In this document: piece after piece, positions 25,599-61,395 of the stretch
Layout: the number at the start of each line of letters is the position of its first letter
Numbering within the stretch: the stretch's first letter is position 1
NCBI GenBank assembly: GCA_016187335.1
Contig: JACPJW010000001.1
Location: 404,170 to 468,169 of the forward strand
Direction of reading: 5' to 3'
DNA: 64,000 bases
DNA from: Candidatus Aenigmatarchaeota archaeon
GTDB taxonomy: Archaea; Aenigmatarchaeota; Aenigmatarchaeia; GW2011-AR5
The notes under the pieces: model-generated
Database searches by the model: none
The model's input: only the letters and a program-made list of their open reading frames with translations
Told to the model about the DNA's origin: nothing
Made by a program: the position numbers and the translations under genes

Positions 25599-25750
25599 TT
25601 CAAATACACCTCGTTAATAGAATTTCTTTCCATGCACGCTTTCATTTTTGACGCAACTTTTTCCTAAAAGTTGCCGTATACTTTCATGCACATACATAGA
25701 AGAAGCTAATCTTTAAAAGGGTTGCGGTGCGGCTTAGCGTGTCACACAAT

Positions 25751-27312: not shown

Positions 27313-27332
27313 TTTGTGCTTCGTTCGGCTAT

Positions 27333-27491
27333 GGGCCGGTAGCTCAGTGGTAGAGCACCTGTCTTATACGACGTGTTTTCTTAATTGGAAAAAGAAAACA
27401 TTGCTAAGCCAGCAGGGGGTCGAGAGTCCGATACAAACTTTTCCAAAAAGTTTGATCAAAAGGGAAAGTTGCGGAATCCTCTCCCGGCCCA
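27333..27491 (+). tRNA. tRNA-Ile (anticodon UAU) with anticodon-loop intron and T-loop intron
   Basis: GGGCCGG-TA-GCTC-AGTGGTA-GAGC-A-CCTGT-CTTATA then ~42-nt intron, A-GCAGG; 3' end CTCTC-CCGGCCC-A; exons sum to about 72 nt; T-loop junction ambiguous. Confidence 0.6.
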
Positions 27492-27534
27492 TTCGGCTCT
27501 TTCAGAAAATGGCGGAAAATGTAGCAGAATAAAT

Positions 27535-28008: not shown

Positions 28009-28295
28009 CTTCAGCGTTATTTTTTTCTAAATCCAGGCAAAAATAAAAAAAGACTGATTTAATTGATAACAAATAAAGTATTAAAGCCTATTTCTGAAAA
28101 AGCACGAAGAAAATTTTGGAAAATTTTTCAATGTTGCCGCATTTTCAGGAATCAAAAGGCTATTTCAAACCTCAGAAGGAAAAAAAGAAGCAGTAAGTAT
28201 ATGGCAATCATCCCGAGCACAACGTATTTTTCTTCTTTTGGCATAATTTTATTTCTTTGCCACGCTTAAAAAGATTTTTGCCTTATTTTTTCGGT

Positions 28296-28827: not shown

Positions 28828-28940
28828 GGGCTTGTAGTCTAGAGACCCTTTAGAAAAAGCGTCTACGAAAAGGGTTGGAAAATGGTTATGACGTCGCCTT
28901 CACACGGCGAAGGTCGGCGGTTCGAATCCGCCCGAGCCCA
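28828..28940 (+). tRNA. tRNA-Val (anticodon CAC) with 40-nt D-loop intron
   Basis: GGGCTTG-TA-GTCT-AG [intron 28843-28882] TGGTTA-TGAC-G-TCGCC-TTCACAC-GGCGA-AGGTC-GGCGG-TTCGAAT-CCGCC-CGAGCCC-A; exons sum to 73 nt. Confidence 0.8.
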
Positions 28941-34102: not shown

Positions 34103-34749
34103 AAGAGATTTTTCCCGGCGTGTTCAGGTCAGGCAAAGACTTGCTTACTGTTAATTTAGTTCCCGGAAAGAGGGTCTACGGCGAAAAGCTGCTTGCCAAA
34201 GGCAGGCAGGAATTCAGGGAATGGGTCCCCCAGAGGAGCAAGCTTGCCGCAGCGATAATGAACGGGCTACAGAACATGCCGATGAAGCAGGGCAGCAGGA
34301 TACTCTATCTAGGCGCAGCATCAGGGACAACGCCGTCGCACGTGAGCGATATTGTTGGCCATGACGGAATTGTCTATGCCCTGGAATTCTCTGAACGCCC
34401 GTTCAGGTCACTGATAGAGCTGGCGCGAACCCGCAAGAACATTGCCCCGCTGCTTGCTGACGCGCGGAAGACAGAGGATTATTACTGGGTCGAGGCGTGC
34501 GACATTCTATATTGCGACATCGCGGACCCCCAGCAGACTGAGATTGCTATCCGCAATTTTGAAGAATTCATTGCCGAAGGTTTTCTTTTACTTTCAATAA
34601 AATCACAGAGCATCGACGTTGTCAAGGAGCCGCTGCGCGTTTACGAAGAGGAAAAAAGGAAATTAGAGAAAGCGGGATTTGACGTTCTTGAACTGATCGA
34701 CCTAGAGCCATACGAGGAAAAGCACTGCTTCATCGTAGCGAAGAAATAA
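34099..34749 (+). CDS. flpA: Fibrillarin (rRNA/tRNA 2'-O-methyltransferase)
   Basis: 216 aa; SAM-binding VLYLGAASGTTPSHVSD and conserved fibrillarin N-terminus. Confidence 0.9.
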   Translation: MKEIFPGVFRSGKDLLTVNLVPGKRVYGEKLLAKGRQEFREWVPQRSKLAAAIMNGLQNMPMKQGSRILYLGAASGTTPSHVSDIVGHDGIVYALEFSERPFRSLIELARTRKNIAPLLADARKTEDYYWVEACDILYCDIADPQQTEIAIRNFEEFIAEGFLLLSIKSQSIDVVKEPLRVYEEEKRKLEKAGFDVLELIDLEPYEEKHCFIVAKK

Positions 34750-38900: not shown

Positions 38901-40421
38901 TTTTTTATTGGACTTTATCCATTTTGGCACAAATGTCTTTGTTTCCGTCTTTTTTCCTATAGGACAGCCTAGCGTTATAAGCAAAACAGCCAAAGACAAA
39001 GAATAACATCTCATGGATGTTGTAAATCCCTTTATTGCTCTGCCATTTACGACAGATTTAGTTGGCACGGTTGAAATATCCGAATGGCTAAAGCCAAGAA
39101 TCTTTAGGTCTTTTTGGATTTCTTTTAAATCTTCCTCTTTTCCGCAGAAATCTATGCCAAATACCGGGAATTTTCTGTTTTTAGATGTACGTACAACAAT
39201 AGATCCATCACCAAAAATATGACCTGCCAATCTGGCTAAAATAAATGATTTTGTAGATTTACTGTGAAGAGGTATCAGTTCTTTATCTTTCAATTCATTT
39301 ATTATAGAATCGTAGCGCGTAAACGTATTTACTTTTAAAATTTTTGCTACCCATGATTTTGAAACTCTTATTTTGAAGGCGTTTTGTATTTCTTTAATAA
39401 TTTTAGTATATGAATAGTTATTTTTTCTAAGTTCGGCAACAAAGTTCTTAATTTTAATTTTCGAATGACTTGTAAGGTCGTTAAATTTATGCAGATCTCT
39501 GAAAACTATATTTTCTAAGTTCTGCAAAGTAAACATTACATTATTCTCATTTACAAGAGCTTTGCCTGTTTCCGTAATTTCCGGCAGTCTGCTTTCCACA
39601 TTATTATATACGGCCACTTTGGTTCCTATTCTGAGCTTAGAAAGAGTCATCCATCCATCTTGCGTCCAGAACGGATGATCACTCGAAGCGATTAGTTTCT
39701 TTCCTGTTAGCGTTTTTACAAGAAATACATTATCTTCCAATTCCACATAGCCCAGAGGTTTTGCCGTAGTTAGAAGTTTAGAATTAGTATCAACAGCTAC
39801 AACCGTGTTGTGTTTCCAGCAGCCTTTCAGTTCTCCTATTTTTCTTGTTCCCCCTTCAACAAGAATAGTAGAATTAGGATCAACGCATCTCGGGCATACA
39901 TGCACCGGATAAAGACCCTTGTAGAGCAGTCCCTTGTCGTAAGCGGTCTTGAACGTGTGCCACGCGCCCTCTATGTACTCGTTGTTGTACGTTATGTAAG
40001 GGTTGTCCCAGTCCATCCACACGCCAAGATTCAGGAACTGGTTATTCATGACAGAAATGAACTGGCTGACGAACGCCCTGCATTCCTTGTTGAATCTCTC
40101 GACGCCTAGCCTTTCTATATCAGCCTTTGATTTTATCTCCAGTTTTTGCTCGACCTTGTTTTCTATCGGCAGCCCGTGGGTGTCGTAGCCCGGCTGGTCC
40201 CATACGTCGAAGCCGGACATGCGCCAGAATCGGATGTAGCTATCCTTCAATATTTTGTTCCAGGCAGTGCCTATGTGTATGTAGCCCGTGGCGTAAGGCG
40301 GGCCGTCAAGGAAGTAGAATTTCTTCTTTCCTTTTCTTTTTGTCTTGGCCTTCTGGTAAATGCCGTCTTTTGCCCAGAACTCGGCGATTTCTTCTTCTTT
40401 TTTCTTGCGGCTTTCTATCAT
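35904..40421 (-). CDS. ileS: Isoleucyl-tRNA synthetase interrupted by an intein
   Basis: 1505 aa; HIGH (YIHIGT), KMSKS (KMSKSKGN), WPISRQRYWGIPLP; 557-aa insertion between CPR and CETA of the zinc-binding region. Confidence 0.9.
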   Translation of the reverse strand: MIESRKKKEEEIAEFWAKDGIYQKAKTKRKGKKKFYFLDGPPYATGYIHIGTAWNKILKDSYIRFWRMSGFDVWDQPGYDTHGLPIENKVEQKLEIKSKADIERLGVERFNKECRAFVSQFISVMNNQFLNLGVWMDWDNPYITYNNEYIEGAWHTFKTAYDKGLLYKGLYPVHVCPRCVDPNSTILVEGGTRKIGELKGCWKHNTVVAVDTNSKLLTTAKPLGYVELEDNVFLVKTLTGKKLIASSDHPFWTQDGWMTLSKLRIGTKVAVYNNVESRLPEITETGKALVNENNVMFTLQNLENIVFRDLHKFNDLTSHSKIKIKNFVAELRKNNYSYTKIIKEIQNAFKIRVSKSWVAKILKVNTFTRYDSIINELKDKELIPLHSKSTKSFILARLAGHIFGDGSIVVRTSKNRKFPVFGIDFCGKEEDLKEIQKDLKILGFSHSDISTVPTKSVVNGRAIKGFTTSMRCYSLSLAVLLITLGCPIGKKTETKTFVPKWIKSNKKLTREFLASYFGSELQIISPRKYGKGFECLRLYLTKNRHLEENGMEFAKQICALINKFGVSTGEIKTERNIVNKIEKSKTTISIDCNDYNLIKFIRYLGYEYCKYRKIRASHVLGYLLYKKSLEKQYRKLKGRILSLRHSKIPCSKIAIMLNLPELYVRHVVYGKSKSVRAAKYTPAFDAWLKNAAKDLRDGFIWDEINSIKYKGKRKVCDIAVETHHNFITNGFLTHNCETAVAYNEIEYSKAKDPSIYVKFPVKGQENVFLVIWTTTPWTLPANTGIMAHPKHEYVKVMVESSGGTEFLILAKPLLEAVMKKAGLPFSIVETFPGKKLAGTEYEHPLRDIFTFQQQLKGAHKVVLSEQYVSMEDGTGLVHTAPGHGQEDYKVGLENKLPIISPVKINGTFDEKCGAFAGNPVKASDKKIIELLKEKDLLLKEETITHDYPQCWRCSTPLLLISVSQWFFRVTKIRDKLIKENKNVNWYPEWAKQRFNNWLENLGDWPISRQRYWGIPLPIWICEKCESVKVIGSADELPEIPRDLHRPYIDNVFLKCRCGSAMKRIADVLDVWFDAGLAGWASLGYPKNKALFKKLWPSDFQTEGPDQIRGWWNAELITSVITFDEKPFTNILFHGFILDAHGVKMSKSKGNIVEPEDIIKKYGRDVLRFYLLSSAPWDDFYFKWPDVEAIARSLIVIENSFNFVKTYATKPKQTDASSGSMPKKLNIEDKWILSRLNTTIKNCTQHFCSYNGHKAVTELHDFLVNDFSRWYIKLIRDRVWPAYSGKDKEAAFYTLYEIAEKTSQLLAPITPYLAEQINLEILGEKESVHTRDWPKYDSKYISAKAEKAMNIVKNLVEASNSQRHESNIKIRWPLAKLTVDSKENLKPFAEIIKNMCNVKAAVFANTNNGVPFDGGKLELDTLLTDELKKEALLREVVRKVQDMRKKSGLVVMDKIALKIEGAGELKKWEKEIKNEVGAAKVVFAKAEGEKLDFEGRKIGIEIKKIK
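38217..39887 (-). mobile_element. Intein with LAGLIDADG homing-endonuclease domain inside ileS
   Basis: Starts CVDPNSTILVEGG, contains ILARLAGHIFGDGSI, ends FLTHN followed by Cys; A/T-rich relative to exteins. Confidence 0.7.
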
Positions 40422-41195: not shown

Positions 41196-41330
41196 GGCCG
41201 CCATGGTGTAGAAAGCCCTTTTTGACGCTTCGCTTATCAAAAAGCGCTTGCGGAAATAATTAGGGTTTGCAAATTGGTAGCATCGGAGCCTGTGGAGCTC
41301 CTTGGCTGGGTTCGAATCCCAGTGGCGGCC
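41196..41330 (+). tRNA. tRNA-His (anticodon GUG) with encoded G-1 and 63-nt D-loop intron
   Basis: G-1 plus GCCGCCA, D-stem GTGT/GCAT, D-loop AG [intron 41212-41274] TGGTA, anticodon arm GGAGC-CTGTGGA-GCTCC, T-arm CTGGG-TTCGAAT-CCCAG, acceptor TGGCGGC, discriminator C. Confidence 0.8.
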
Positions 41331-50465: not shown

Positions 50466-51163
50466 ACCCAAACCCCCAGCAATGAGCCGATAAGGAAGCC
50501 TGTCAATGCCGCTGCCATCCCGACCAAGGACATCTCTATTCCGCTCTTCCACCATGTGCCCAGAGTCATCTTCGCCTTGACGGAGCCGGCGATGAACAAA
50601 GTGATAGTTGAAATTATTACGGAAACAATTATAGCATCCTTTATCGGTATGAAGAAGAAAGGCAGCAGCGGTATCAGCGAGCCGATGATAGCTGAGAATC
50701 CTACGACGAATGCGCTTTTTGTCGGGTTCTCAGAGTCCTCAGGCGATACGTGAAGTTCCTCTGTCATCATCGTGTCCAGCCACACCTTCTTGTCGGACGT
50801 GATTTTGTCCACTATTTTTTTCAGCGGGGCGCCGCGGAATCCTTTCCTGTAATAAATGTCGCGAATTTCCTTCCTTTCGACATGCGGCAGTTCCCTTATC
50901 TCCTTCATCTCCCTTTCCTTTTCGCTTTTGTAGAAATCCCTGCTTGCCTTGAAGGACGTGTAAGCGACAGCTGCCATGGAAATGCTCTCCGCAAAGGTGG
51001 CGGCAATGCCGGCAATAATGACTATTCTGGCGTCCTGCACGGCTGTCGCGACACCGAGAATGATTCCCAGAACATTGACGAGGCCGTCCTGCCCGCCGAG
51101 GATGAAGTCGCGCAGCGTAGAGCCGCTCTTGTGCATTTCCCTGTGAACGTCTGCTGACGACAT
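50462..51163 (-). CDS. VIT1/CCC1-family membrane protein (iron/manganese transporter-like)
   Basis: 233 aa; GGQDGLVNVLGIILG N-terminal helix, central cytoplasmic segment, C-terminal TM helices. Confidence 0.7.
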   Translation of the reverse strand: MSSADVHREMHKSGSTLRDFILGGQDGLVNVLGIILGVATAVQDARIVIIAGIAATFAESISMAAVAYTSFKASRDFYKSEKEREMKEIRELPHVERKEIRDIYYRKGFRGAPLKKIVDKITSDKKVWLDTMMTEELHVSPEDSENPTKSAFVVGFSAIIGSLIPLLPFFFIPIKDAIIVSVIISTITLFIAGSVKAKMTLGTWWKSGIEMSLVGMAAALTGFLIGSLLGVWV

Positions 51164-51228
51164 GGTTTTCTCTTGGCGAAAACGTGATTTAAAGATTTTA
51201 GTTGAGTTTTAGTGTAGCATTAGTTCAT

Positions 51229-51492
51229 GCGCCCGTAGCTCAGCTTGGCAAACTTTGCTACTCCAAAGTTTGATCAAAAGAGGTCTGTGACGAAGTTTGA
51301 GCAAATAGAGCACTTCTCTCCTAGAGGTGAATTGAGCGCAACGGAAGACTGAAGTTTCTGAAGAAACTTCAGCCGGTTTTGTGCGATGATAATTTCCTGA
51401 AGTGAGGAAGGGGCCGCGCGTTCGAATGCACCCTTTCTTGGAAAGAAAGCGTGCACGGAAAGAAAAGGGTGCCGAATATCGCGCCGGGCGCG
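51229..51492 (+). tRNA. tRNA-Arg (anticodon CCU) with three introns
   Basis: Exons GCGCCCG-TA-GCTC-AGCTTGG / TAGAGC-A-CTTCT-CTCCTA / A-GGAAG-GGGCC-GCGCG-TTCGAAT / CGCGC-CGGGCGC-G; introns about 51249-51305, 51324-51404, 51428-51479; exons sum to 74 nt. Confidence 0.8.
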
Positions 51493-51495
51493 CTT

Positions 51496-51798
51496 ATGTT
51501 CCATTACAGAGATCCGATAAGGGAAATAGCGGAAGAAGACGGATATTTCCTCACCGAGACAGCCGAAGGTATGAATCTTGCCTTGAAGACAATCTTAGGC
51601 TTTGCAAGCATAATACTCAGGGAACTGGAAGGGGGGAAATGTTATGTAAAAATAGTACTTGAGCCTCCTAGAGGTTTATCAAGGACAGCCGAAGAAATTT
51701 TTGAAAGTCCTTATTCCGCGGCCGGATATGTTGCAAAATGGATGTGCGGACCTATCTATACGGATCTGGTTCAAGAAGTTGAGGCGTTAATTCTCTAA
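51496..51798 (+). CDS. Hypothetical protein
   Basis: Start taken at MFHYRDPIRE because the track ORF overlaps the tRNA-Arg 3' exon. Confidence 0.4.
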   Translation: MFHYRDPIREIAEEDGYFLTETAEGMNLALKTILGFASIILRELEGGKCYVKIVLEPPRGLSRTAEEIFESPYSAAGYVAKWMCGPIYTDLVQEVEALIL

Positions 51799-51832
51799 TC
51801 TTTATATTCCGCCTTCGCACAAAAGATTCATT

Positions 51833-53170
51833 ATGAGGAAATATCTGTTATCAATAGTCCTGCTGCTGCTTTCGTCTGTACCTGTTTTTGCAGTGGGCAA
51901 CCTCACGGTTTTCAGCGTTCCTTTATCACAGCCGGCTGTCTACGCAAACACCAACCAGTCCGTTAACGTCCTTAACCTGACCCTGAACGTGACGGCGGGC
52001 AGCGGCGCGGACGGCGTCATCAACATAACTGTCATCAATATTACGGTGACCAACAGCAGCGAAGGCAACCTGTCAGCGGGCAATATATCAGCGGTTGAGG
52101 TCAGGAACAGCACGGGGTTCCCGATAGCAAGGAACACAACAGTCAATCCTGCAAACAACATGACGTTCACGATTTCAATCCCGGGAGGGCTGACCATAAA
52201 CACATCTAATGCGACCATATGGATTGCCATCAACATATCAAGGTCGGCGGCGCGCTTCCTGAACATATCAGTGAACATAACGGGTCCCGGGGAAATAGGC
52301 ACGAACAGCTCTGTGAACAATATCACGATATCAGGCGTTTCAATAAAGTCAAACGGCGTGCAGATACAGAATTTACATTCAAACTCAACAATATCGCCGC
52401 GCTTTGTGGACACGGGCGTTGAGAACCAGTCGTTCACTTACACCTTGGTTCCGCCGACTGGAACGGATGCAATAAAGAACGTCAGTATTTCGTTCCCGGC
52501 CAATTACACCTTGTCCAAGCTCATTTCAATAATGGTTGGCGGCGGCGTCCCGGACGGCGCGACAAACAATACAGCCGTCAACGGCATAAACATTTCCCTG
52601 AGCACGGCCACGACCCAGACAATACAGGTAAACTTCACCGCCAACACTTCCGTCAATCCTATCCAGAACAGGGCGTTCTCATCAACCCTGGACGGAGGAA
52701 ACCTCTCTGCCGTGTCAACTGATCCCACGCTGGAAGGGGTGAATGTAAGCACACAGCCCATACTGAACCTTACGAACGTCACCCTGGTAAAAAGCACTGC
52801 AATAATCAACGGCACCGATTACTGGGAATTCAATTTCACTTTGAATTACACTGCCAACATATCAACAGGAGGCCTGATTCAGTTCAGGCTCACGGACTGG
52901 AACACTTCTTCCGGCAGCACGCTTGCATTGAACAATTCATTGTGCGATGGCAGCAGGTGCGCGTCCCTGAGGAACGAGACAACCATGAACACCACAGGGA
53001 AATTCAACATAACGAATGATTACGAATCTTTCACAAAGGGAATCACCATATCGTCCATAACACAGGGCACCCTGACAATACTGGTCTTGAGAATGGTAAT
53101 ACCTTCAAATGCCCCGACATCATCCAACTGGCAGGCTGCTTACGGATTTTTGTTCAGGTCAAGCCCTTGA
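51833..53170 (+). CDS. Secreted surface protein, extremely N-glycosylation-sequon rich
   Basis: 445 aa; signal peptide MRKYLLSIVLLLLSSVPVFA; about 40 N-x-S/T sequons counted by hand. Confidence 0.6.
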   Translation: MRKYLLSIVLLLLSSVPVFAVGNLTVFSVPLSQPAVYANTNQSVNVLNLTLNVTAGSGADGVINITVINITVTNSSEGNLSAGNISAVEVRNSTGFPIARNTTVNPANNMTFTISIPGGLTINTSNATIWIAINISRSAARFLNISVNITGPGEIGTNSSVNNITISGVSIKSNGVQIQNLHSNSTISPRFVDTGVENQSFTYTLVPPTGTDAIKNVSISFPANYTLSKLISIMVGGGVPDGATNNTAVNGINISLSTATTQTIQVNFTANTSVNPIQNRAFSSTLDGGNLSAVSTDPTLEGVNVSTQPILNLTNVTLVKSTAIINGTDYWEFNFTLNYTANISTGGLIQFRLTDWNTSSGSTLALNNSLCDGSRCASLRNETTMNTTGKFNITNDYESFTKGITISSITQGTLTILVLRMVIPSNAPTSSNWQAAYGFLFRSSP

Positions 53171-53191
53171 CGTTTTTAATAGTGATGCTGA

Positions 53192-54403
53192 ATGGATTAT
53201 CGCCTTTCAATACTTTTAGCTGCGGCATGCCTGCTTCTGCTGTCCTTCGTTTCCAGAGGAGAAACAACCGGCAATGTAAGCATCTCAACGCAGGGAAATA
53301 TTTCCCCGTCAACAGGGGTTTACGGATATGTAGCTCCCGGCGGATGCAACAGCAACGCGGAGTGCTACGACTATAAATGCTTCCAGGATTTTTTGGTGCC
53401 ATCCGGAAACAAGACCGGCAGGTGCGACGTCCCGGCAACCACAAAATGCTTTCACAGCGGGACAGGCTATTCAACCGGCACTTATTATTGCTCGGCTAAC
53501 ACATCGTATTACCGGTGCGATACAGGCGGCAACGGAAGCTGGACAGGCGCGTTTTCGTGCTCGTCAGGCCAGACGTGTTCTGTTGATAGTACGTCGTCTT
53601 CAGCCCCTTGCTCAACATCGTCGCCTTCAAGCAGCTCAAGCAGCAGCGGAGGCGGAGGCACAGCAATAAAGAAAGCCTCTGTCCAGCTTGTCTCGGGCAT
53701 AGCCGGCTTTGAAATTTATCAGGAGGAAGATGTCAACAAAACGGTTATCGTGAAAAACAACGGCGATTATGTCCTTGGCAATGTCTACCTTGACATACAG
53801 GGAATTCCTTTTGCTTCCGTCCTTACGGGCAGCAGCGAGATCAATTTGTCAAAAAATTACAACTTCACCGTGTCTTTCATGCCCAAAAACTCTACTGAAA
53901 TCAGGACGTACCCCGCCAATGCAACGGTTTATACCAACTTCACCAATACGACGGCAAACTTTTCCTTCACAGTCAAAGTACTCCCAAGCAACAGGACCGT
54001 TTCAGAGTCAATCATTCCCGCGTACGCAGAATATATCAACCTTTCTCTGGAATACGAAAAGAACGTAACGGCCCTGGAAAAGGAAGGGCATAACCTCACG
54101 GATGCGAGGGCGATTCTTACGACAATAAAGGCAAAGATGCAGGACATCAACCAGTCGATATCCAAGAAGGACTACTTTTCTGCTGCATCCCAGATCAGCG
54201 AGGTGAAGGTTCTTTTTGATGAGCTCCAGAAAACCATTTCAAAATCCGAAAAGCCGAAAGGAACGGATATAATAATTTATCTGGCCGTCGCCGCTGCCAT
54301 TCTGGTGGCAGTTATTCTGGCCTACCTTCTGTGGCCGTCAAAGCAGCAAAGAAGAGTTTTTCAGGGCCAGCAGTATTCGCAAGCAGCAGTAATTAAGCAA
54401 TAG
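53192..54403 (+). CDS. Surface protein with Cys-rich N-domain, Ser-rich linker and C-terminal TM anchor
   Basis: 403 aa; signal peptide, Cys-rich segment, poly-Ser stretch, many sequons, C-terminal hydrophobic helix IIIYLAVAAAILVAVILAYLLW. Confidence 0.6.
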   Translation: MDYRLSILLAAACLLLLSFVSRGETTGNVSISTQGNISPSTGVYGYVAPGGCNSNAECYDYKCFQDFLVPSGNKTGRCDVPATTKCFHSGTGYSTGTYYCSANTSYYRCDTGGNGSWTGAFSCSSGQTCSVDSTSSSAPCSTSSPSSSSSSSGGGGTAIKKASVQLVSGIAGFEIYQEEDVNKTVIVKNNGDYVLGNVYLDIQGIPFASVLTGSSEINLSKNYNFTVSFMPKNSTEIRTYPANATVYTNFTNTTANFSFTVKVLPSNRTVSESIIPAYAEYINLSLEYEKNVTALEKEGHNLTDARAILTTIKAKMQDINQSISKKDYFSAASQISEVKVLFDELQKTISKSEKPKGTDIIIYLAVAAAILVAVILAYLLWPSKQQRRVFQGQQYSQAAVIKQ

Positions 54404-54758
54404 AGATCCGGCCGGCGTCAGCGGCTGGTGGTTTCTTTCCCTGAACCGACCTTTCTGCGGCAAACTTGCAGAGGATGACAAATCTGCTGTTCAGTTCGCC
54501 GCGGTCAAGCTTGTTTTCAAAAATCACGGAAGCCAGTTTTCTCGCCTCTGAAATTATTTCGTCGTTGGAAAAAACCCTGTCGTTTTTCCCCCTTATCCTG
54601 CGCAGGTATTGCGATATTGCCGGCTGCGATATTCCCATCAGCCTTGCGGCCTCGCTCTGGTTAAGATTGTAGCCCTCAATAAGCTCTCTGGCTATCAATG
54701 ATCTCAGAGACGGAACTATTTCGCTGGCAATCAGTTCCCATTCAATTTTCATTTTCAA
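54393..54758 (-). CDS. HTH transcriptional regulator
   Basis: 121 aa; helix-turn-helix NQSEAARLMGISQPAISQYL. Confidence 0.55.
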   Translation of the reverse strand: MKMKIEWELIASEIVPSLRSLIARELIEGYNLNQSEAARLMGISQPAISQYLRRIRGKNDRVFSNDEIISEARKLASVIFENKLDRGELNSRFVILCKFAAERSVQGKKPPAADAGRISIA

Positions 54759-54993
54759 TCACCGATGCAAGGAGAAGCAAAGCTTCTATGATAAGAGATT
54801 GAAACAAACGTTTTTAAGCCTGATAAGTTTCTAGAATTTTATTATACCGAGGGCTATGAGGCCTGTCACCAGAACGATGGCCGTTATGAGTATCCAGAAA
54901 TAAGTGTAAACGTAATCATGCGTCGACTTTTCTTTCATAATCAGAACCCATCATGTTAATTAATTTTATTTAGTCGGTTCCGGTACCTCCGAC

Positions 54994-55518
54994 TTATTTC
55001 TTCATCATCAGGGGCTCCCCTTTTTCAGGGTAATGCACGTCAATCAGCTCGTAATCCTGCAGTACGCGGGCCCACTGCTCTACAAGGCCTTCATGGACGC
55101 CGAATTTCTTCGCGGCGTCTTTCAGTTTCACCTTTTTGTTTTTCATCACCAGGTCAAACAGCTCGTCCAGAGGCGCCTTGTAATCCTTCTTCAAATCAGC
55201 AATAACCTTTTCATTGCTCACGATGCCTTCCTTGGCGACTCTTTCAAAGAACTTTGCATTATCAATGATTATCTGCTTTGCAGGCTTGACAATGCTTTCT
55301 TTTACCGGCTCTGAAATGCTTGGCAGCTTTCTCAGAATATCCTTGTATCTTTCAAGAAGAAAATCCCTGTCGCTTTTCAGCTCGATGTTTTCTTTTTTCA
55401 GCTTGATTATAGTATCCTTCATGATGGAGAAGGATTCCTCCATGCGCTGCATCCTCCTGTTCATTTCCCTTTCAAGTCTGGCAATTTTTTTTTCGGCGTC
55501 GTCAGCGAATAGAGGCAT
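54994..55518 (-). CDS. Coiled-coil hypothetical protein
   Basis: 174 aa; heptad-like charged N-terminal half. Confidence 0.45.
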   Translation of the reverse strand: MPLFADDAEKKIARLEREMNRRMQRMEESFSIMKDTIIKLKKENIELKSDRDFLLERYKDILRKLPSISEPVKESIVKPAKQIIIDNAKFFERVAKEGIVSNEKVIADLKKDYKAPLDELFDLVMKNKKVKLKDAAKKFGVHEGLVEQWARVLQDYELIDVHYPEKGEPLMMKK

Positions 55519-55578
55519 AAGAAAAAATTCTTTTGATATTTTTTAAAGCTTATAACGAACGGGAGCGAACACATATGC

Positions 55579-56379
55579 ATGTACGTTGTCAAGGCCGACG
55601 GCCGGCGCGAGACTTTCAGCAAAGAGAAAATAATAAATACATGCCTCAAGGCCGGAACCGACAGGAAGAAGGCTGAGGAAATATCAGGAAAAGTTTTTTC
55701 GTCCGTCAAAGACGGGATTGCCACGAAGGAAATATACAGAATGATTCTGAATCTTCTTGAAAAAGCGAGCCATAGGTCATCTTTCTTTTTCCGCCTCAGG
55801 GACGCAATAGCAAAGCTCGATTCTGAAAGCTATGAACTCTATGTAAAAGAGCTTTTGGAATCCATGGGCTACAAATGCTCGTGGAATAAAATCATTGCCG
55901 GAAAATCCGTGGAGCATCAGGTTGATATTGTTGCAAAAAACGCGAAAGGCAGAATGTTTCTTGTTGAATGCAAAAGGCACGTGAACCCCCACAGGTTCTG
56001 CGGCCTGGGCGTCATTTTGCAGGTCCAGGCGCGCCTTGAGGACATAGATGACGGCTTCGAATCAGGGAAAAATAATTGCAGGTTTGACCAGGCGTGGATA
56101 TTCAACAACACGAAATTCTCGGAGCACGCAAAGCAGTACGCTGCGGCAAAAAATATCCTCCTGAGCGGATGGGGGTACAAAGGAAGCATTTCTATAGAAA
56201 AGCTTGCTGGCAGGAACAGGATATATCCCGTGACGCTGCTGAAAGCAGACAATTCAACAATACAGCAGCTGCTCCGTCAGAAAATAATCACGGTGGAGGA
56301 TGTCCTGAAAGAAAAGATAAGCATGCCGAAGAGCGTTGCCGATGAGCTCAGGAAGCAGGCACGTATCATTCTTTCTTAA
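55579..56379 (+). CDS. ATP-cone domain fused to Mrr-like restriction-endonuclease domain
   Basis: 266 aa; ATP-cone start MYVVKADGRRETFSKEKI; nuclease-like core YELYVKELLESMGYK...QVDIVAKNAKGRMFLVECKRH. Confidence 0.6.
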   Translation: MYVVKADGRRETFSKEKIINTCLKAGTDRKKAEEISGKVFSSVKDGIATKEIYRMILNLLEKASHRSSFFFRLRDAIAKLDSESYELYVKELLESMGYKCSWNKIIAGKSVEHQVDIVAKNAKGRMFLVECKRHVNPHRFCGLGVILQVQARLEDIDDGFESGKNNCRFDQAWIFNNTKFSEHAKQYAAAKNILLSGWGYKGSISIEKLAGRNRIYPVTLLKADNSTIQQLLRQKIITVEDVLKEKISMPKSVADELRKQARIILS

Positions 56380-56404
56380 AAATTATCTGTGCAGTTATTA
56401 GCAG

Positions 56405-56509
56405 GCCGGCGTCGCATAATCTGGTGGTGCACTGATTGCATGCGAAGCAAGTGTATGTCTCGAAAACCAGCGGGCTCTGCCCATGCAGGTTCAAATCCTG
56501 CCGCCGGCG
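56405..56509 (+). tRNA. tRNA, anticodon unresolved, probably intron-containing
   Basis: Acceptor GCCGGCG/CGCCGGC with discriminator G; T-arm GCAGG-TTCAAAT-CCTGC; internal 73 nt could not be folded into a unique cloverleaf. Confidence 0.5.
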
Positions 56510-56513
56510 CTTT

Positions 56514-56981
56514 ATGATAGAAATAAAACTAGCTGCTGAAAAGGATAGGCAAGGCTTTGAAAATCTGGCTGCAGAAAGAGACAAAGAAATAAGGCAGCGC
56601 AGGGCAAAAAATTACTGGGGCAAAAAATTCACGAAGCTTGTCATGGAAAAGAGGCTGGTAATTAGCCTTGACAAAGGCAAGCCATCAGGATTTCTTTATT
56701 TTACATTCGAATTTATCGACTATCCTGCGGCGTACGTTGAGCTTATTTTTGTTTCAAAGAAGAGCCGGAGAAAGGGTTCAGCCTTGTATTTGTTGAATAG
56801 ATTCGAGCGGCTCGCGTCAGAAAACGGTTTTGTCAATGTATTTTCCAGCACAAATCCAAGCAACAGGATCTCGCTGAAATTGCACAAGAAGCTCGGCTAC
56901 AAAGAATGCGGCTTTATCTACGGCATAGAAAACAGGCGCAGCAAGGAGATTTTTCTCTCAAAAGAACTGAAAAAAACCTAA
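56514..56981 (+). CDS. GNAT-family N-acetyltransferase
   Basis: Start taken at MIEIKLAAEK; acetyl-CoA motif region VSKKSRRKGSALYLLNRFERLA. Confidence 0.6.
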   Translation: MIEIKLAAEKDRQGFENLAAERDKEIRQRRAKNYWGKKFTKLVMEKRLVISLDKGKPSGFLYFTFEFIDYPAAYVELIFVSKKSRRKGSALYLLNRFERLASENGFVNVFSSTNPSNRISLKLHKKLGYKECGFIYGIENRRSKEIFLSKELKKT

Positions 56982-57022
56982 ACTTCCTTTTTAAGTTTTG
57001 AAACAAGTTCTTAGTATTTCAT

Positions 57023-57282
57023 GCCGGGATACCGAAATCAGGTCTCTCAAGATAAGAGTGAAGAAATTCACGATGATTGCCTTTCATTGGTAAACGGGCC
57101 AGTGCAGTTCCGCTTCAAAGAAGCGGTGCGGCCAACCTTGAGAGCTGGTGCGCCTTCGGCGCGTGGGGGTTCAAAGCACCCTTTCTTTTTGCAAAAGAAA
57201 GCGTGCGCGGAAAGAAAAGCAACTTTTCAGAAAAGTTGCATCAAAAATAAAGGAAAGGGCTGTGAAATTCCCTCTCCCGGCG
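57023..57282 (+). tRNA. Class II tRNA, tentatively tRNA-Ser (UGA), with three putative introns
   Basis: Acceptor GCCGGGA/TCCCGGC, discriminator G; anticodon arm CCAGT [intron] CTTGAGA-GCTGG; variable arm GCGCC-TTC-GGCGC; T-arm GGGGG-TTCAAA [~93-nt intron] T-CCCTC; exons sum to about 87 nt. Confidence 0.5.
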
Positions 57283-57336
57283 CTTTTTTCTTGAAGATGC
57301 AAGAAGCTTTTAAAATAACCATTTCTAATTATAAAC

Positions 57337-57861
57337 ATGGCAAGCGATTTTTACCGCCAGCTGGGGTCAGGCGTTGCCAGCCTGACGTTCGGCGTTGCGC
57401 TTTCCGTATTCATTTACGCTGCCGCTTCTGGTGCGGCAAGCAGCCTGCAGTCATGGCTGCTCTTTGCGGCATCGTTCCTGCTGATGCTCAGGTTCTGGTG
57501 GCGGTACAGCGAACTTTTCGTGCAGTTCCTGCCGTCCCGCACGTTTTCGCATTTCCTGTTTGACTTTGCGATTTCATTCTTCGGCATTCTGGCAGTGCTT
57601 TTTGTAAGCGCTATGCAGACATGGGCAGCCTTGGGGGCACTGGCTATGCTTTCAAGCGCGATACGATGCAGGCTTTCGTGGAACGAAGCATCCAAGGATG
57701 TAAAGGCAAAGCTGAAAAGAACTTTTGCAGGAGCATTGGCGATGCTTTTTGTCTTCGCTGCGATATACGCCCTTGCACCGGTCTTTGATCAGATTTTGCT
57801 TGCTGCATTAGTATTTCTCATAGTTCTGCTGTTCGTTGTTTACGCCTCAAGAAAGCCGTGA
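57337..57861 (+). CDS. Integral membrane protein (four predicted TM helices)
   Basis: 174 aa; hydrophobic segments separated by short loops. Confidence 0.55.
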   Translation: MASDFYRQLGSGVASLTFGVALSVFIYAAASGAASSLQSWLLFAASFLLMLRFWWRYSELFVQFLPSRTFSHFLFDFAISFFGILAVLFVSAMQTWAALGALAMLSSAIRCRLSWNEASKDVKAKLKRTFAGALAMLFVFAAIYALAPVFDQILLAALVFLIVLLFVVYASRKP

Positions 57862-57966
57862 TTTTGAAATCTCCCGGCGCTTTTTATATTCTGAAGAATA
57901 TATGTCAGCCAAGACAAAAGTATTTAAATCTTTAATCACTAATAAGTAGTATCAAAATTATGAGGT

Positions 57967-58230
57967 GTGGATATGGTAGAACATTTCATTGGAAAGATAT
58001 CAACTCAAGTTCTTACGGATTTAAATAGAGGCAGGGATACGTGGGAAGTTCCATATGAAGCCGTGATTTATGTAAAGGAAGGTCCAGAAGCATGTGGACA
58101 GGTTCTTGGAATAGTTCCGGGACTTAGCCCTGATATGAGAATGCGTACAATGAGCGTTTATGCAGGCAGAAAATTCGTGTCAAAGCCTTCAGAACACGGC
58201 TACAAAGATATTTTCGAAATCGTGGAATAG
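57967..58230 (+). CDS. Small hypothetical protein
   Basis: 87 aa; A/T-rich codons; no motif recognised. Confidence 0.4.
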   Translation: MDMVEHFIGKISTQVLTDLNRGRDTWEVPYEAVIYVKEGPEACGQVLGIVPGLSPDMRMRTMSVYAGRKFVSKPSEHGYKDIFEIVE

Positions 58231-58431
58231 AAATTTTCTAACGTAAAACAAAAACGTTGATTATTTTACAATTCTCTTTTTTATTTCACTATTTATCTTT
58301 CTTTTATTTCAAATTATAAAATTCTTTGATTAATTCTTCAAAATCCCGTGCTTCTCTCGTGCTTTCTGCGTAATTTGCGCCTTGGAAAATCTTTATTAAT
58401 GGGTTTTTACAAGAACTATAAAGGTGAAGAA

Positions 58432-59067
58432 ATGGTATCCCAGATAGTAGATGTATTATCTCAGTTTACCGTTGGTACAGTGTCTTTCCTGCCAAGCCTG
58501 GTTGCTGCCGTCATTCTTCTGGTCATCGGCTTGGTTGTTGGAAAAATAGTGGGAAGGGTAGTCAAGGAAGCCTTGGAAAAGCTGAAGGTTGACTACTACG
58601 TTTCGGAAACCAAGAAGCCCGTTGTGATGCTGAGCGATTTGTTCGCCCTCATAGCAAGATGGTGGATATACCTTGCGTTCGTAACGGCGGCTTTGTCCAC
58701 GAACGTTCTTGGCATACCGTCATTGGCGTTGTGGGTTTCTGAAATCAATGCATTCATCCCGCGAATCATCGGCGCAGCCGTGATTCTGATTTCGGGCTAC
58801 ATCCTGGCTGAGTACATCAGGGGTCACTTGGTGTCATTGAAGAAACTCTATGCAGAGGTTGTCGGCAAGATGCTATTCTTCTTCGTCATGTACGTGGCGC
58901 TTGCGCTTGCCCTGCCTATTCTAGGGGTTTCAGCAATCCTGGTGAACAACATCCTGATAGTAATCATAGCCTCGATAGGGCTTGCAATGGCAATAGCCCT
59001 GGGCCTGGGATTGAAGGACGCTGTTTCTGACGTTTCCAAGAGATATGTCAAAAAGCTGAAAGTTTGA
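58432..59067 (+). CDS. Integral membrane protein
   Basis: Start taken at MVSQIVDVL; multiple TM helices. Confidence 0.55.
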   Translation: MVSQIVDVLSQFTVGTVSFLPSLVAAVILLVIGLVVGKIVGRVVKEALEKLKVDYYVSETKKPVVMLSDLFALIARWWIYLAFVTAALSTNVLGIPSLALWVSEINAFIPRIIGAAVILISGYILAEYIRGHLVSLKKLYAEVVGKMLFFFVMYVALALALPILGVSAILVNNILIVIIASIGLAMAIALGLGLKDAVSDVSKRYVKKLKV

Positions 59068-59097
59068 TTTTTTTGCTTTCATTTCAATTTTTCATTT

Positions 59098-59442
59098 CTA
59101 ATGACTAGGCCGCCAAGCAATGGGATTGAGGCCTGATATTTCCCACCATGAAAAATCCTTGCCGGTTAAAATTTCCCTCGGGTCGTGTATTCCCGCTTTT
59201 CCGGAATGAACCGGCAGTTCTACCCCTTCCAGTTCCTGCTCACTTACAACACAGTAGTGTTCGTCGGATCTGGCGTGGCTGAATACAAGCCTGATTGAAG
59301 CAATCCCCGGAGCGATATACCCTTTATCCCATAATTGCTGGTACGGCTCAAGCCCTCTGAAAGCAAAGGGAAGGTTCGTCTCCCTGCGGTTTTTCAGATA
59401 ATTTTCAATAGTTCCGTCCCTTTCAGGTTTATAAAATGGCAT
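59098..59442 (-). CDS. Hypothetical protein
   Basis: 114 aa ORF, no motif recognised. Confidence 0.4.
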   Translation of the reverse strand: MPFYKPERDGTIENYLKNRRETNLPFAFRGLEPYQQLWDKGYIAPGIASIRLVFSHARSDEHYCVVSEQELEGVELPVHSGKAGIHDPREILTGKDFSWWEISGLNPIAWRPSH

Positions 59443-59484
59443 ACCCTTAGTTCTTAAGAATTAAGCATAAATAGAAATCTTGAC

Positions 59485-59665
59485 GCGATGGTAGTCTAGG
59501 AACCCTTTTTCTCGTTGCGCTCGAAAAAGCGTTCACGGAAAATGGGTTGGAAGATGGTAGGATACAACCTTGCCAACGGCCCTTTTCAAAAAGCGCCGGC
59601 GGAAAATGCAAACAGGTTGAGAGGCGAAAGCCCGACAAACCCGGGTTCAAATCCCGGCCGTCGCA
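59485..59665 (+). tRNA. tRNA-Gly (anticodon GCC) with D-loop, anticodon-loop and variable-region introns
   Basis: GCGATGG-TA-GTCT-AG [intron] TGGTA-GGAT-A-CAACC-TTGCCA [intron] A-GGTTG ... CCGGG-TTCAAAT-CCCGG-CCGTCGC-A; exons sum to about 72 nt. Confidence 0.6.
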
Positions 59666-59759
59666 TAAACAAGAAAAAAATAGCCGGAAACAAGGGTCCC
59701 AGTCAGGCAACGCATCTCAATTATTTATATAGCCCCCTGACAAATATTGTATTGATATC

Positions 59760-60242
59760 ATGTTCTTCAAAAAGAAAGACAATTACGAGGAAATAAAGCG
59801 CGCCGTTGAAGAGCCTGTTTCTTCCGAGCCGACATTGCAGGACCTGGAAATAGAGGACCTGCCGCCGGAAATGCGCTACGACAAGAATTATGCGGAGCCC
59901 CGGGACAGCGCGCCTCTTTTCGTCAAGGTGGAGAAGTACAAGGAACTGATAGGCCTCATACAGGAAATGCGGGCATTTACAAACGGATTGAAGCAGACGT
60001 TTTCTGTGATACACGAGTCTGATGCGCTGCGCAACGATGCCGTTAAAATCATGCGCACGACGGTCCAGCGGCTGGACAAGACCTTGGCAGAAATTGACAG
60101 CGAGCTGGTAAGGCCGCGCGGCATTGACATGGAAAAGCCGCCTTACGCCGGCAGCGAAATGAAATACATTGAAGGATCGCTGTCAGAATTGCAGCGCCAT
60201 TTGGCTGTTTTGCGCAAGGATCTGCAGGAAATGAAGGAATGA
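59760..60242 (+). CDS. Coiled-coil hypothetical protein
   Basis: 160 aa; charged helical segments. Confidence 0.45.
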   Translation: MFFKKKDNYEEIKRAVEEPVSSEPTLQDLEIEDLPPEMRYDKNYAEPRDSAPLFVKVEKYKELIGLIQEMRAFTNGLKQTFSVIHESDALRNDAVKIMRTTVQRLDKTLAEIDSELVRPRGIDMEKPPYAGSEMKYIEGSLSELQRHLAVLRKDLQEMKE

Positions 60243-60291
60243 TCAGGTTATCTGGTTCTTAAATATTTCATCAAAAATTACTACATTCAGT

Positions 60292-60563
60292 GCGGCCGTC
60301 GCCAAGAGGCCCTTTTTAGAAAAAAGCGTCTACGGAAAAACTAAAAAGCGTCTGGAAATCTGGTCAAAGGCGCGGGTTTCACTTGAGTGTTGATGCGCAA
60401 GCAGGTGAAAGCGTAACTCAAGGCAGCTGACGAGGCTGACGCACTTCGTGCGTCATGCTGTTTGATATCCCGTCGGTTAGTCCGTTCGGCGGTTCGAATG
60501 CACCCTTTCTTAGAAAGAAAGCGTGCACGGAAAGAAATGGTGCCGAAAATCCGCCCGGCCGCA
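60292..60563 (+). tRNA. Class II tRNA, probably tRNA-Leu, with three introns (anticodon unresolved)
   Basis: GCGGCCG-TC-GCC-AAG [53-nt intron] CTGGTCAAA-GGC matches the tRNA-Leu D-arm; T-arm GGCGG-TTCGAAT [51-nt intron] CCGCC-CGGCCGC-A; a third ~83-nt intron in the anticodon region gives 85-nt exons. Confidence 0.55.
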
Positions 60564-60621
60564 TTTATTCAATTTTCGCTTCACCAAAACCCTTAAAACC
60601 GCTCACTTTAAAGTAGCAACC

Positions 60622-61395
60622 ATGGATGAGTACCTGCTGACAGTGGGCATCGGCGTATTGATTCTTGCGCTCCTGCTGCTGATAACGAATGCCCAGTTCA
60701 TAACCGGCGCCGCCCCTTCAAGGCAGCTTGTCCCGGCTACGAGCGTTTTTGACCTTGGCAGTTTCAGCTCAACCTTCGTCAAGGAAACGAAAACTTATGA
60801 TTTGGGCAGCAAGGAAGTGTCTAATGGTGTTTTGTTTGGCGAAAACAAGCTGGAGTTCCACGCAGAAGCGCCTGAGATCGAATCAGCACTGGTAAAATTC
60901 CGTGTCGCGCGCATGAATGACCTGGGACCTCTTTTCGTGAAGTACAACGGCGACGTCGTTGAAAAAAAGCGCTACGCTGCGGGGGATTATGCCGTAAGAG
61001 TGCCAAAAGAAATGCTTAACGAATCAAGCACCATTGAAATGTCTGCTTCATCATCGCTTTGGCAGTTCTGGGCGCCCAATATCTACAGCCTCAGGAATAT
61101 AAATCTTATAGTGAAATCCTTTGATTTCAGCCCCGCGGAGCTTAACTTCACGCTTGGCGAGGAATACACAACGCTGAAGCAGGGAAGGATTGAGTTCAGC
61201 TTAGAAGAAAACACTGGAAGAATGGCTGTTGTTCTCAACGGGAAAGAAATCATGAATGATTTTGCGCGCAACGAGCAGTCCGTGCCATTCAGCAAAGAGG
61301 AAGCGAGAGCAGGGGAAAACAAAATAAGGATTGTGCCGCTGCAGGGCTCGCGCTTCAGCGGAACTGCGCATGTTGTCGTGTTTTGGGAGAAATAG
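60622..61395 (+). CDS. Membrane-anchored extracellular protein
   Basis: Start taken at MDEYLLTVGIGVLILALLLLI because the track ORF overlaps the tRNA-Leu 3' exon. Confidence 0.5.
   Translation: MDEYLLTVGIGVLILALLLLITNAQFITGAAPSRQLVPATSVFDLGSFSSTFVKETKTYDLGSKEVSNGVLFGENKLEFHAEAPEIESALVKFRVARMNDLGPLFVKYNGDVVEKKRYAAGDYAVRVPKEMLNESSTIEMSASSSLWQFWAPNIYSLRNINLIVKSFDFSPAELNFTLGEEYTTLKQGRIEFSLEENTGRMAVVLNGKEIMNDFARNEQSVPFSKEEARAGENKIRIVPLQGSRFSGTAHVVVFWEK

Follow-up and report, generated by a model that had tools for sequence, protein, structure and literature searches.

Why do three tRNA genes with unlike acceptor stems carry nearly the same intron at the same place? The question is posed by a 64-kb window (the whole stretch of DNA analysed here, to whose positions all coordinates refer) from a Candidatus Aenigmarchaeota (DPANN) genome, in which tRNA-Arg(CCU), tRNA-Ser(UGA) and tRNA-Leu(CAA) each hold a short intron in the T-loop. 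An original prediction, made before any database search, took these introns for copies of one intron that had spread by transposition or homing rather than by vertical descent. Our analysis indicates that they belong to the bulge–helix–bulge (BHB) type of intron and are built around a small hairpin repeat, here called module X. We put at about 0.8 the probability that the three loci are genuine multi-intron tRNA genes whose introns between positions 59 and 60 were built from one mobile or copy-prone X module, where both the splicing and the mobility are what we infer.

Introns between positions 59 and 60 of three tRNAs

All three elements lie within 1 nt of their predicted places, and both strings reported for them are exact. 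GCACCCTTTCTT occurs at 51428, 57176 and 60500 (the window holds 19 matches with at most two mismatches, against 8 expected), and AAAGCGTGC(A/G)CGGAAAG occurs at 51446, 57198 and 60518, where 0.6 would be expected in the window. The introns do not follow the T-loop directly, as had been proposed, but sit inside it, between nucleotides 59 and 60, a listed non-canonical intron position in archaeal tRNAs (PMC4090602). Junctions were examined with our own scanner, for which a strict BHB consists of a 4-bp helix, two 3-nt bulges on opposite strands and flanking helices. The archaeal splicing endonuclease EndA cuts between bulge nucleotides 2 and 3, and the intron ends given here are set on that assumption.

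With this scanner the Arg junction resolves into a 5-bp T-stem (GCGCG/CGCGC), a central helix TTCG:CGAA, bulges AAT and TAT, and a 9-bp inner helix, and the Leu junction into the T-stem GGCGG/CCGCC, the same TTCG:CGAA helix, bulges AAT and AAT, and a 5-bp inner helix. The RNAfold minimum-energy structures of T-arm plus intron contain the same helix-flanked motif (hBHBh′) in both, at −24.5 kcal/mol and z = −2.7 for Arg. The BHB fold implied by the original prediction is near-strict in Ser, where the sequence reads as a central helix TTCA:TGAA, bulges AAG and ATT, and an inner helix CACCCTTTC/GAAAGGGCTG with one bulged C. A T-loop junction of the same kind can be read in tRNA-Ile(UAU), with the central helix TCCG:CGGA and bulges ATA and ATC.

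The 3′ ends of the introns had been described as a T-loop mimic, CGAA(T/A)AT. This ending is present in Arg and Leu; the Ser intron ends in TGAAATT. Because the Ser intron has TGAA, the complement of its TTCA, the likeness is one of complementarity and not of duplication, and the supposed mimic is best read as the intron strand of the central 4-bp helix, a functional need of the BHB motif and no relic. An origin of the mimic by target-site duplication was rejected on the same ground, since the Ser element forms no repeat.

The Arg and Leu introns are identical at 48 of 52 positions (92%), and either is 90% identical to the aligned part of the Ser intron, so the claim of a homologous intron at one site stands. 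Since the three are built from one small repeat module, we regard them with high confidence as homologous BHB introns at 59/60, predicted to be excised by the standard archaeal pathway. The genes themselves are distinct, as had been proposed from their acceptor stems, which are unlike each other in all three; Arg is a class I tRNA, while Ser and Leu belong to class II.

None of the three is called in unspliced DNA. ARAGORN reports 0 tRNAs in the raw 64-kb window, and Rfam reports three, none of them Arg(CCU), Ser(UGA) or Leu(CAA). These failures, together with one core-like copy that lies upstream of a thermosome gene, would suit the view that the loci hold no spliced introns at all and are tRNA pseudogenes in decay, pieces of split or permuted tRNAs with a promoter inside, or a repeat arisen by chance. 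The Arg, Ser and Leu genes are missed because each carries three to four introns. With all introns cut out in silico, ARAGORN calls tRNA-Arg(cct), Ser(tga), Leu(caa), Gly(gcc), His(gtg), Val(cac) and Ile(tat), and every spliced product is a canonical tRNA with a paired acceptor stem. The Arg call is obtained with every tested D-loop boundary except one, that boundary being uncertain. The restored T-loops read TTCGAAT in Arg, TTCAAAT in Ser and TTCGAAT in Leu. Exons are conserved in relatives (one mismatch in Arg), the tRNA halves are contiguous and in normal order, and the strict or near-strict BHB junctions likewise speak for introns. The genes are preceded by normal TATA-like boxes of their own and the core holds none, on which grounds an internal promoter and a split or permuted arrangement were rejected. 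We consider the chance that these loci are not intron-bearing genes almost negligible. Standard tRNA finders overlook 9 of at least 10 tRNA genes in the window, which is part of why tRNAs seem to be missing from DPANN genomes.

Splicing can be outlined from the geometry of the junctions. In the pre-tRNA the T-stem, the 4-bp helix and the intron-internal helix would stack; the 4-bp helix would form between T-loop nucleotides 54–57 and the 3′ end of the intron, leaving two 3-nt bulges exposed. The EndA encoded in the window would cut once in each bulge, and an RtcB-type ligase would join the exons into a normal 7-nt T-loop. We infer these steps, and splicing in vivo, from the known archaeal pathway. 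The window EndA is expected to be a single alpha-type subunit and is the predicted excising enzyme for the introns of the window. Relative to M. jannaschii EndA, six residues rich in Lys, KKGPKS, are inserted in it and align with KKGKRS of the N. equitans alpha (catalytic) subunit, and an extra loop found DPANN-wide in EndA has been linked to more tRNA gene disruption (PMC5829648). The window yielded no RtcB ligase.

The family extends beyond the three introns. For the core pattern CCCTTT N(2-24) AAAGCG NNNN CGRAAA the window has 8 matches where 0 would be expected, always on the plus strand and always in tRNA genes, with one copy each in Val, His, Arg and Ser and two each in Gly and Leu. These six genes hold it in the D-loop introns of Val(CAC), His(GUG), Gly(GCC) and Leu(CAA), in the 37/38 intron of Gly, and in the T-loop introns of Arg, Ser and Leu. 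A related H-type core, a hairpin AACTTTT..AAAAGTT followed by ATCAAAA, is found 12 times against 0.2 expected; it turns up, among other places, in the D-loop intron of Arg and the T-loop intron of Ser, in the trailer of tRNA-Val, in the stretch upstream of the thermosome gene and as three units in tandem. All members of the proposed family of three are confirmed, within a larger family that counts eight X cores and a fourth T-loop intron, in Ile(UAU).

Intron content and position among orthologous loci

Orthologous loci were found by synteny in four relatives, with protein identities to the window of 82% (VIT1, locus L121), 85% (L123), 83% (L124) and 67% (L128). The Arg(CCU) ortholog in L121 differs from the window gene by one exon base and carries a T-loop intron at the same site that is 65% identical, with indels. 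Because the Arg and Leu introns of the window are 92% alike against 65% for this true ortholog, we conclude that intron sequence has spread non-vertically, and within-genome paralogous introns are in general far more alike than orthologous ones. The L121 gene also has an additional 28-nt anticodon-stem intron, and its D-loop intron is X-type and near-identical to the tRNA-His D-loop intron of the window, whose own Arg D-loop intron is H-type.

Other loci differ by whole introns. The Gly(GCC) orthologs in L123, L124 and L128 lack both X introns. Of the Leu(CAA) orthologs, the L124 gene has an intron in neither the D-loop nor the T-loop, and the L123 gene lacks the D-loop intron and has a T-loop intron with H-type content. 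In Ser(UGA) the orthologs of L124 and L128 carry a T-loop intron at the same site without an X core, and the window Ser intron looks like an X unit added onto an older H-type intron. Comparison with relatives, by which the original prediction could be judged, finds introns absent, replaced or diverged in L121, L123, L124 and L128. As read from these alignments, intron sites are gained, lost and overwritten across short evolutionary distances, the direction of gain versus loss being deduced, and what moved appears in part to be a small hairpin module, the content of the intron, and not the site at which it sits.

Purely vertical descent would mean that an ancestral T-loop intron was passed on through tRNA duplication and divergence and that the similarity is residual. 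That 59/60 introns are common to relatives for Ser (L124, L128) and Arg (L121) fits such a history. It is already contradicted, however, by the 90–92% identity of introns in unrelated class I and class II bodies against 65% for the Arg ortholog, by the intronless T-loop of the L124 Leu gene, and by the presence of the same core in D-loop introns, 37/38 introns and 23S rRNA genes, and we regard it as highly improbable. With high confidence, the intron sequence is judged to have been copied or homogenised within the genome and not inherited with the tRNA bodies. Of the two modes of spread originally proposed, homing finds no footing, as the T-loop introns (51–93 nt) contain no open reading frame (ORF) and no homing endonuclease; apart from tRNA, no group I, group II or other Rfam family matches positions 51000–61000 at E-values up to 10.

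Table 1. Introns, tRNA genes and related features of the 64-kb window.
Feature	Position	Strand	Basis or remark
tRNA-Arg T-loop (59/60) BHB intron, 52 nt, X-type core	51427..51478	+	strict hBHBh′ motif
tRNA-Ser T-loop (59/60) intron, 93 nt: X-type unit ~57176-57218, then H-type hairpin unit (57219-57239 plus ATCAAAAAT)	57176..57268	+	
tRNA-Leu T-loop (59/60) BHB intron, 51 nt, X-type core	60499..60549	+	strict hBHBh′ motif
tRNA-Leu D-loop intron, X-type core and partial second copy	60308..60360 (boundaries approximate)	+	core pattern 60310-60338; removal gives a valid tRNA-Leu
tRNA-Arg(CCU), 3 introns (D-loop, 37/38, T-loop)	51229..51492	+	acceptor GCGCCCG/CGGGCGC pair; ARAGORN after splicing; syntenic ortholog in L121
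tRNA-Ser(UGA), 3 introns (D-loop, 30/31, T-loop)	57023..57282	+	acceptor GCCGGGA/TCCCGGC pair; ARAGORN after splicing
tRNA-Leu(CAA), 4 introns (D-loop, two anticodon-arm, T-loop)	60292..60563	+	acceptor GCGGCCG/CGGCCGC pair; ARAGORN; orthologs in L123, L124
tRNA-Gly(GCC), 3 introns: X-type D-loop (59501-59553), X-type 37/38 (59576-59613), small variable-region	59485..59665	+	core pattern; ARAGORN after splicing
tRNA-His(GUG), with G-1; X-type D-loop intron ~41215-41271	41196..41330	+	core pattern 41216-41256; ARAGORN after splicing
tRNA-Val(CAC), X-type D-loop intron ~28844-28881	28828..28940	+	core pattern 28846-28871; Rfam matches 3′ part only; ARAGORN after splicing
tRNA-Ile(UAU), 37/38 intron and H-type T-loop (59/60) intron 27433-27477	27333..27491	+	ARAGORN tRNA-Ile(tat) after splicing
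Degenerate X core (AAAGCGTGCATGGAAAG) beside H-type hairpin	25626..25674	−	upstream of thermosome gene; copy outside any tRNA
tRNA splicing endonuclease EndA, 202 aa	6336..6944	−	Pfam tRNA_int_endo_N and tRNA_int_endo

Two further tRNA genes of the window have no X core. The one at 8403–8521 (minus strand) is matched by Rfam and is called tRNA-Leu(taa) by ARAGORN once a 35-nt intron is removed; the other, at 56405–56509 (plus strand), bears an intron, is matched by Rfam and is called tRNA-Ser(cga) with the ARAGORN intron option. The 37/38 intron of tRNA-Arg (81 nt, about 51313–51393; listed region 51264–51344) has ends, GGTGAATTGAGC... and ...GTGCGATGATAATTTCCTGAAGTGA, that are kept in L121. 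They hold CUGA and GAUGAU, C/D-box-like strings of atypical spacing, and Nop5 and fibrillarin genes lie at 33128–34749.

The tandem array at 15393–15471 consists of three head-to-tail H-type units, AACTTTTTAGGAAAAAGTT-TAATCAAAAAG, with a 30-nt period on the minus strand between two minus-strand genes. Cumulative GC skew has its minimum at about 27000–28500, where genes change from mostly minus to mostly plus, and the orientation of both H-type and X-type repeats switches near 28 kb along with gene orientation; the minimum could mark a replication origin. Two intein-bearing genes, each with a GC dip to about 0.37, also lie in the window: topoisomerase VI subunit A with a LAGLIDADG intein (9432–12146, minus strand) and a class I tRNA synthetase of the Ile/Val/Leu type (1505 aa; 35904–40421, minus strand). 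With the thermosome, Nop5 and fibrillarin they show the encoded proteins to be archaeal. The VIT1 transporter beside tRNA-Arg has 100% identity to a protein of a 'Candidatus Aenigmarchaeota archaeon' metagenome-assembled genome on a 918-kb contig, and nearly all graded homologs of a membrane protein close by bear Aenigmarchaeota labels.

Structure, distribution and probable spread of the X module

An alignment of 104 distinct X copies in a fixed frame, taken from the window, archaeal genomes, metagenomes and IMG/VR contigs, reveals how the module is put together. An outer stem is formed by G-N1N2N3, within the NNNN region, with the first C and the three bases before CCC, and it covaries over all four Watson–Crick pairs. 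Among the 104 copies, columns 1–26 hold CG in 35, AU in 31, GC in 21 and UA in 12, columns 2–25 hold AU in 84, CG in 9 and GC in 8, and columns 3–24 hold AU in 72 and GC in 26. Paired cells amount to 85% (shuffles 73%) and the covariation score to 0.346 (shuffles 0.123); on either measure 0 of 500 shuffles came as high, and slid controls were all far lower. G·U pairs make up about 1–2% of outer-stem cells. From this alignment the module reads as one extended hairpin, in which an invariant C·C mismatch separates the outer stem from an inner stem C-U3-4/A3-4-G; N-CG-GAAA and a purine tract come next. Where a copy lies in a tRNA intron, the inner helix of the BHB motif is made by the 5′ strand together with a further strand, AAAGGGU... 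Because the latter competes for the 5′ strand, the local hairpin and the splicing-competent fold are alternatives.

The purine tract after CG is a mirror of the 3′ stem strand, that is, a parallel complement of the 5′ pyrimidine strand. The relation holds over the full tract (7–14 nt) in 15 of 20 informative sequence types, including the asymmetric CUUUUCUCUUUCCC/GAAAAGAGAAAGGG. When tracts were shuffled among copies, 0 of 5000 shuffles reached the observed mirror total; kinship among copies inflates this test, yet the rule holds for eight or more distinct types of tract. Mirror tract and stem are compatible with an intramolecular purine·purine-pyrimidine triplex. If the tract is read as repeating the stem strand directly, the symmetric tracts agree and so, at the cost of one indel, does the Arg intron; this reading was rejected because it fails on the asymmetric tracts of L001, L002, L019, L121 and the window Ser intron, where the mirror is exact. 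An interpretation of CG NNNN CG as a mini-hairpin was dropped when the alignment showed that G-N1N2N3 pairs upstream of CCC instead, and kink-turn, C/D-box and H/ACA motifs in the core were rejected on inspection, which found no tandem G·A arrangement and no boxes. The covariance models of Rfam 15 give tRNA matches only, none of which covers the X core. The heptamer GCTTCGC recurs either where the X hairpin has its apical loop or immediately 3′ of the purine tract (for example in L012, L013, L047, L052, L117 and at 41227–41233 of the window), with a mild enrichment across the whole window (23 against 14.5 expected). Its other strand, GCGAAGC, is an unusually stable DNA mini-hairpin.

Copies of X are found far outside this window. 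A genome scan with one genome per species gives at least 120 loci; about 85 of the matches listed are archaeal, often several per genome, and the bacterial matches listed lack the hairpin and are chance-like. Record labels among the matches listed include Aenigmatarchaeota, Woesearchaeota, Diapherotrites, Micrarchaeota, Altiarchaeota and Nanohaloarchaea, and further Bathyarchaeota, Thermococcus, Methanocellales, Methanosarcinales, Methanophagales and Nitrosotalea. The contexts seen are 37/38, D-loop and T-loop introns, tRNA 3′ trailers in Thermococcus metagenome-assembled genomes (MAGs), sites like 5′ untranslated regions (UTRs), and long ORFs. In a metagenome scan the T-loop subfamily appears in tRNA introns at 37/38 and 59/60, among them a Leu ortholog that carries the same T-loop intron. 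Copies within 23S rRNA genes, the identity of which Rfam confirms, come from the metagenome scan (L163, L164) and the genome scan (L018), and copies on IMG/VR contigs are likely genuine. Partial tandem duplications and nested X copies occur.

Several of these settings can be described more closely. The 23S copies (L018 5838–9125; L163; L164) lie in the domain V region after ...CAAGAGTACAC in sense orientation, and the L018 gene additionally holds a group I intron. In Thermococcus-labelled MAGs (L052–L057, L025) the X core starts 4–6 nt past the encoded CCA of several tRNA genes and is followed by a conserved stretch of about 60 nt (..GCGTGCTTTCTGAAAA..TTTCAAGGGGTTTA..); a mobile-element gene beside these trailer copies was looked for and rejected, the neighbours being housekeeping genes only. 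On an IMG/VR contig (L140 709–738) the 3′ end of a tRNA (GTTCAAATCCCTCCGGGCCC on the other strand) stands as a direct repeat on both sides of an X copy, an integration-junction-like arrangement and the only case seen antisense to tRNA pieces.

Every tRNA- or rRNA-embedded copy with flanks read is in sense orientation. Copies within ORFs are sense, in frame and free of stops, and all 4 genuine cases in which the open frame exceeds 240 nt on each side keep the frame. The hosts, conserved proteins among them, are ABCE1, a 356-aa ORF (L013), a membrane protein and, three times, an IS200-like transposase gene. No BHB motif lies at a consistent position around ORF-embedded or intergenic copies, and the idea that the ORF copies are BHB introns was rejected on that ground; their reading frame is open. 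In an Aenigmatarchaeota MAG (DAIDAN010000016.1; L044 3597–3635) the copy stands in frame in the essential ribosome-recycling factor ABCE1, directly after its KPQ motif. P. abyssi ABCE1 is shorter by 8 residues at this point, and the translated element, PFLSKRAKSAGGK, aligns loosely with the native DLLPKAVKGK, which hints at a microhomology insertion or a partial replacement. The IS200-like transposase gene of the MAG 'archaeon Yes46-13' (L117 1–462) has three in-frame inserts of 39–45 nt, two X-type and one H-type, as judged against a homolog from another MAG (L092, reverse complement, 1784–2290) that itself has one X insert beginning with an in-frame TAA.

Is X a mobile module, or is its likeness a product of selection? 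In the main rival explanation the core is a functional RNA motif, a binding site or structural cassette for precursor folding, intron-circle stability, processing or regulation, which introns, trailers and UTRs would have kept or taken up independently, its likeness between tRNAs being due to constraint. Strong hairpin covariation and the mirror relation of the purine tract speak for this view. It is weakened by the in-frame copies at unrelated positions of unrelated proteins, from ABCE1 to the transposase, and by the turnover of copies among close relatives. Partial tandem duplications and nested copies, the lack of any Rfam family match and a rarity of G·U pairs in the stem that is unusual for a selected RNA helix also count against it, and we consider it unlikely.

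A mobile or copy-prone X module, the reading we prefer, has its own difficulties, and several observations weigh against it. The core is conserved across archaeal phyla with its invariant C·C mismatch and CGGAAA, and the transcribed copies are strictly sense, both of which could mean a selected RNA function. No target-site duplication is seen between filled and empty sites (Gly D-loop, Gly 37/38, and the transposase gene TnpA of L117 versus L092), and Pfam scans of 53 ORFs of the window, which spans 64 kb of a 918-kb contig, find no transposase, reverse transcriptase or HUH nuclease. HUH (histidine-hydrophobic-histidine) nucleases act on single-stranded DNA. D-loop and some 37/38 junctions read as relaxed BHB variants and not as strict ones. 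The polarity of gain versus loss rests on three to four relatives, and the taxon labels of several MAGs are unverified record labels. The 59/60 position itself appears old and vertically inherited in at least Ser(UGA) (L124, L128) and Arg (L121), so that the pattern is partly vertical. From the original prediction, then, non-vertical spread of the intron sequence is upheld, as the Leu gene of L124 and the 92% versus 65% identities indicate, homing falls away, and the site in Ser and Arg appears old.

We hold with moderate confidence that the vehicle is a small, widespread, copy-prone hairpin element that invades existing introns and founds new ones. X would have created new introns in the D-loop and 37/38 position of tRNA-Gly and the D-loop of tRNA-Leu, and would have overwritten or nested in existing ones in the tRNA-Ser T-loop and in the tRNA-Arg D-loop, which is unlike between relatives. 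Whole introns, including their exon-complementary 3′ ends, would be copied between tRNAs with the same loop sequence, and it is by such whole-intron copying that the near-identity of the Arg and Leu introns may be explained. Candidate routes at the DNA level would be gene conversion or transposition of a single-stranded DNA hairpin; at the RNA level, an RtcB-type ligation into cleaved loops or reverse splicing, either followed by reverse transcription. Strict sense orientation and almost purely Watson–Crick covariation may fit a single-stranded DNA hairpin element that enters the exposed strand of replicating or heavily transcribed genes, and may also fit an RNA-level route. In many cases the 5′ flank of X copies is A-rich.

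From the dispersed, structured copies, eight in the window and 104 distinct ones in the alignment, a broader and more tentative proposal may be drawn, which we would rate as possible and somewhat short of even odds: that X and the related H-type form a mobile structured element, pan-archaeal and so far undescribed, a hairpin of about 30–45 nt that enters tRNA loops, 23S rRNA, UTRs and coding sequence, always in sense orientation, and is domesticated as a BHB intron in RNA genes. If this holds, new introns of archaeal tRNA and rRNA would have a concrete source in the X element.

Comparison with known introns and dispersed hairpins

Short hairpin repeats are known from other genomes. Rickettsia palindromic elements are reportedly selfish palindromic repeats that lie in frame in protein genes. 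X resembles them as a short dispersed hairpin repeat that is in frame and stop-free in ORFs and occurs also in RNA genes and intergenic DNA; unlike them (100–150 nt), it measures about 30–45 nt, is archaeal, is strictly sense in RNA genes, and lies within BHB introns in tRNA genes. Repetitive extragenic palindromic (REP) elements and palindrome-associated transposable elements (PATEs) are mobilised by IS200/IS605-type HUH transposases. Like these, X is a small imperfect hairpin with a conserved mismatch, a flanking motif and an orientation bias, has neither classical terminal inverted repeats nor a target duplication, and shows the Watson–Crick covariation expected of a DNA hairpin. It differs in that the window yielded no cognate HUH gene, its stem is much shorter than transposase-bound hairpins, and its tie to IS200-like genes (L092, L117) consists of insertions inside them only.

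As introns, the elements share with known non-canonical archaeal tRNA introns (2007, 2008; review PMC4090602) the 59/60 site, the hBHBh′ geometry and a number that can reach three or more per gene, and the endonucleases associated with such introns likewise carry extra loops (PMC5829648). The differences are the four introns of the window tRNA-Leu and a putatively single-subunit, alpha-type EndA with a Nanoarchaeum-like Lys-rich loop.

A close parallel comes from the Thermoproteales, in which similar introns in different tRNAs were read as a recent gain by 'transposition' of unknown mechanism (Fujishima et al. 2010, Mol Biol Evol 27:2233, as summarised in PMC4090602 and PMC10714607). The gain of archaeal tRNA introns at new positions has been an open question since that report, with the similarity known and the vehicle not identified. 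A defined hairpin module that can be tracked across genomes, with filled and empty orthologous sites and non-intron contexts, makes the question testable. Against the mark of a transposed intron group in the sense of that report, an identity above about 70% in tRNAs whose bodies are not closely related, the window introns are 92% (Arg versus Leu) and 90% (either versus the aligned part of Ser) alike, with presence/absence or replacement at the orthologous Gly, Leu and Arg sites. Intron sharing between tRNAs is, on this account of the 2010 report, a new instance of a known phenomenon; the hairpin module behind it appears undescribed, and our literature searches, which included literal core strings as queries, found no description of it. 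Unlike the Thermoproteales groups as summarised, the window belongs to the Aenigmarchaeota (DPANN), the shared sequence is a defined, covarying hairpin module, and X is found also outside tRNA introns, in 23S rRNA genes, trailers, UTRs and ORFs of several phyla.

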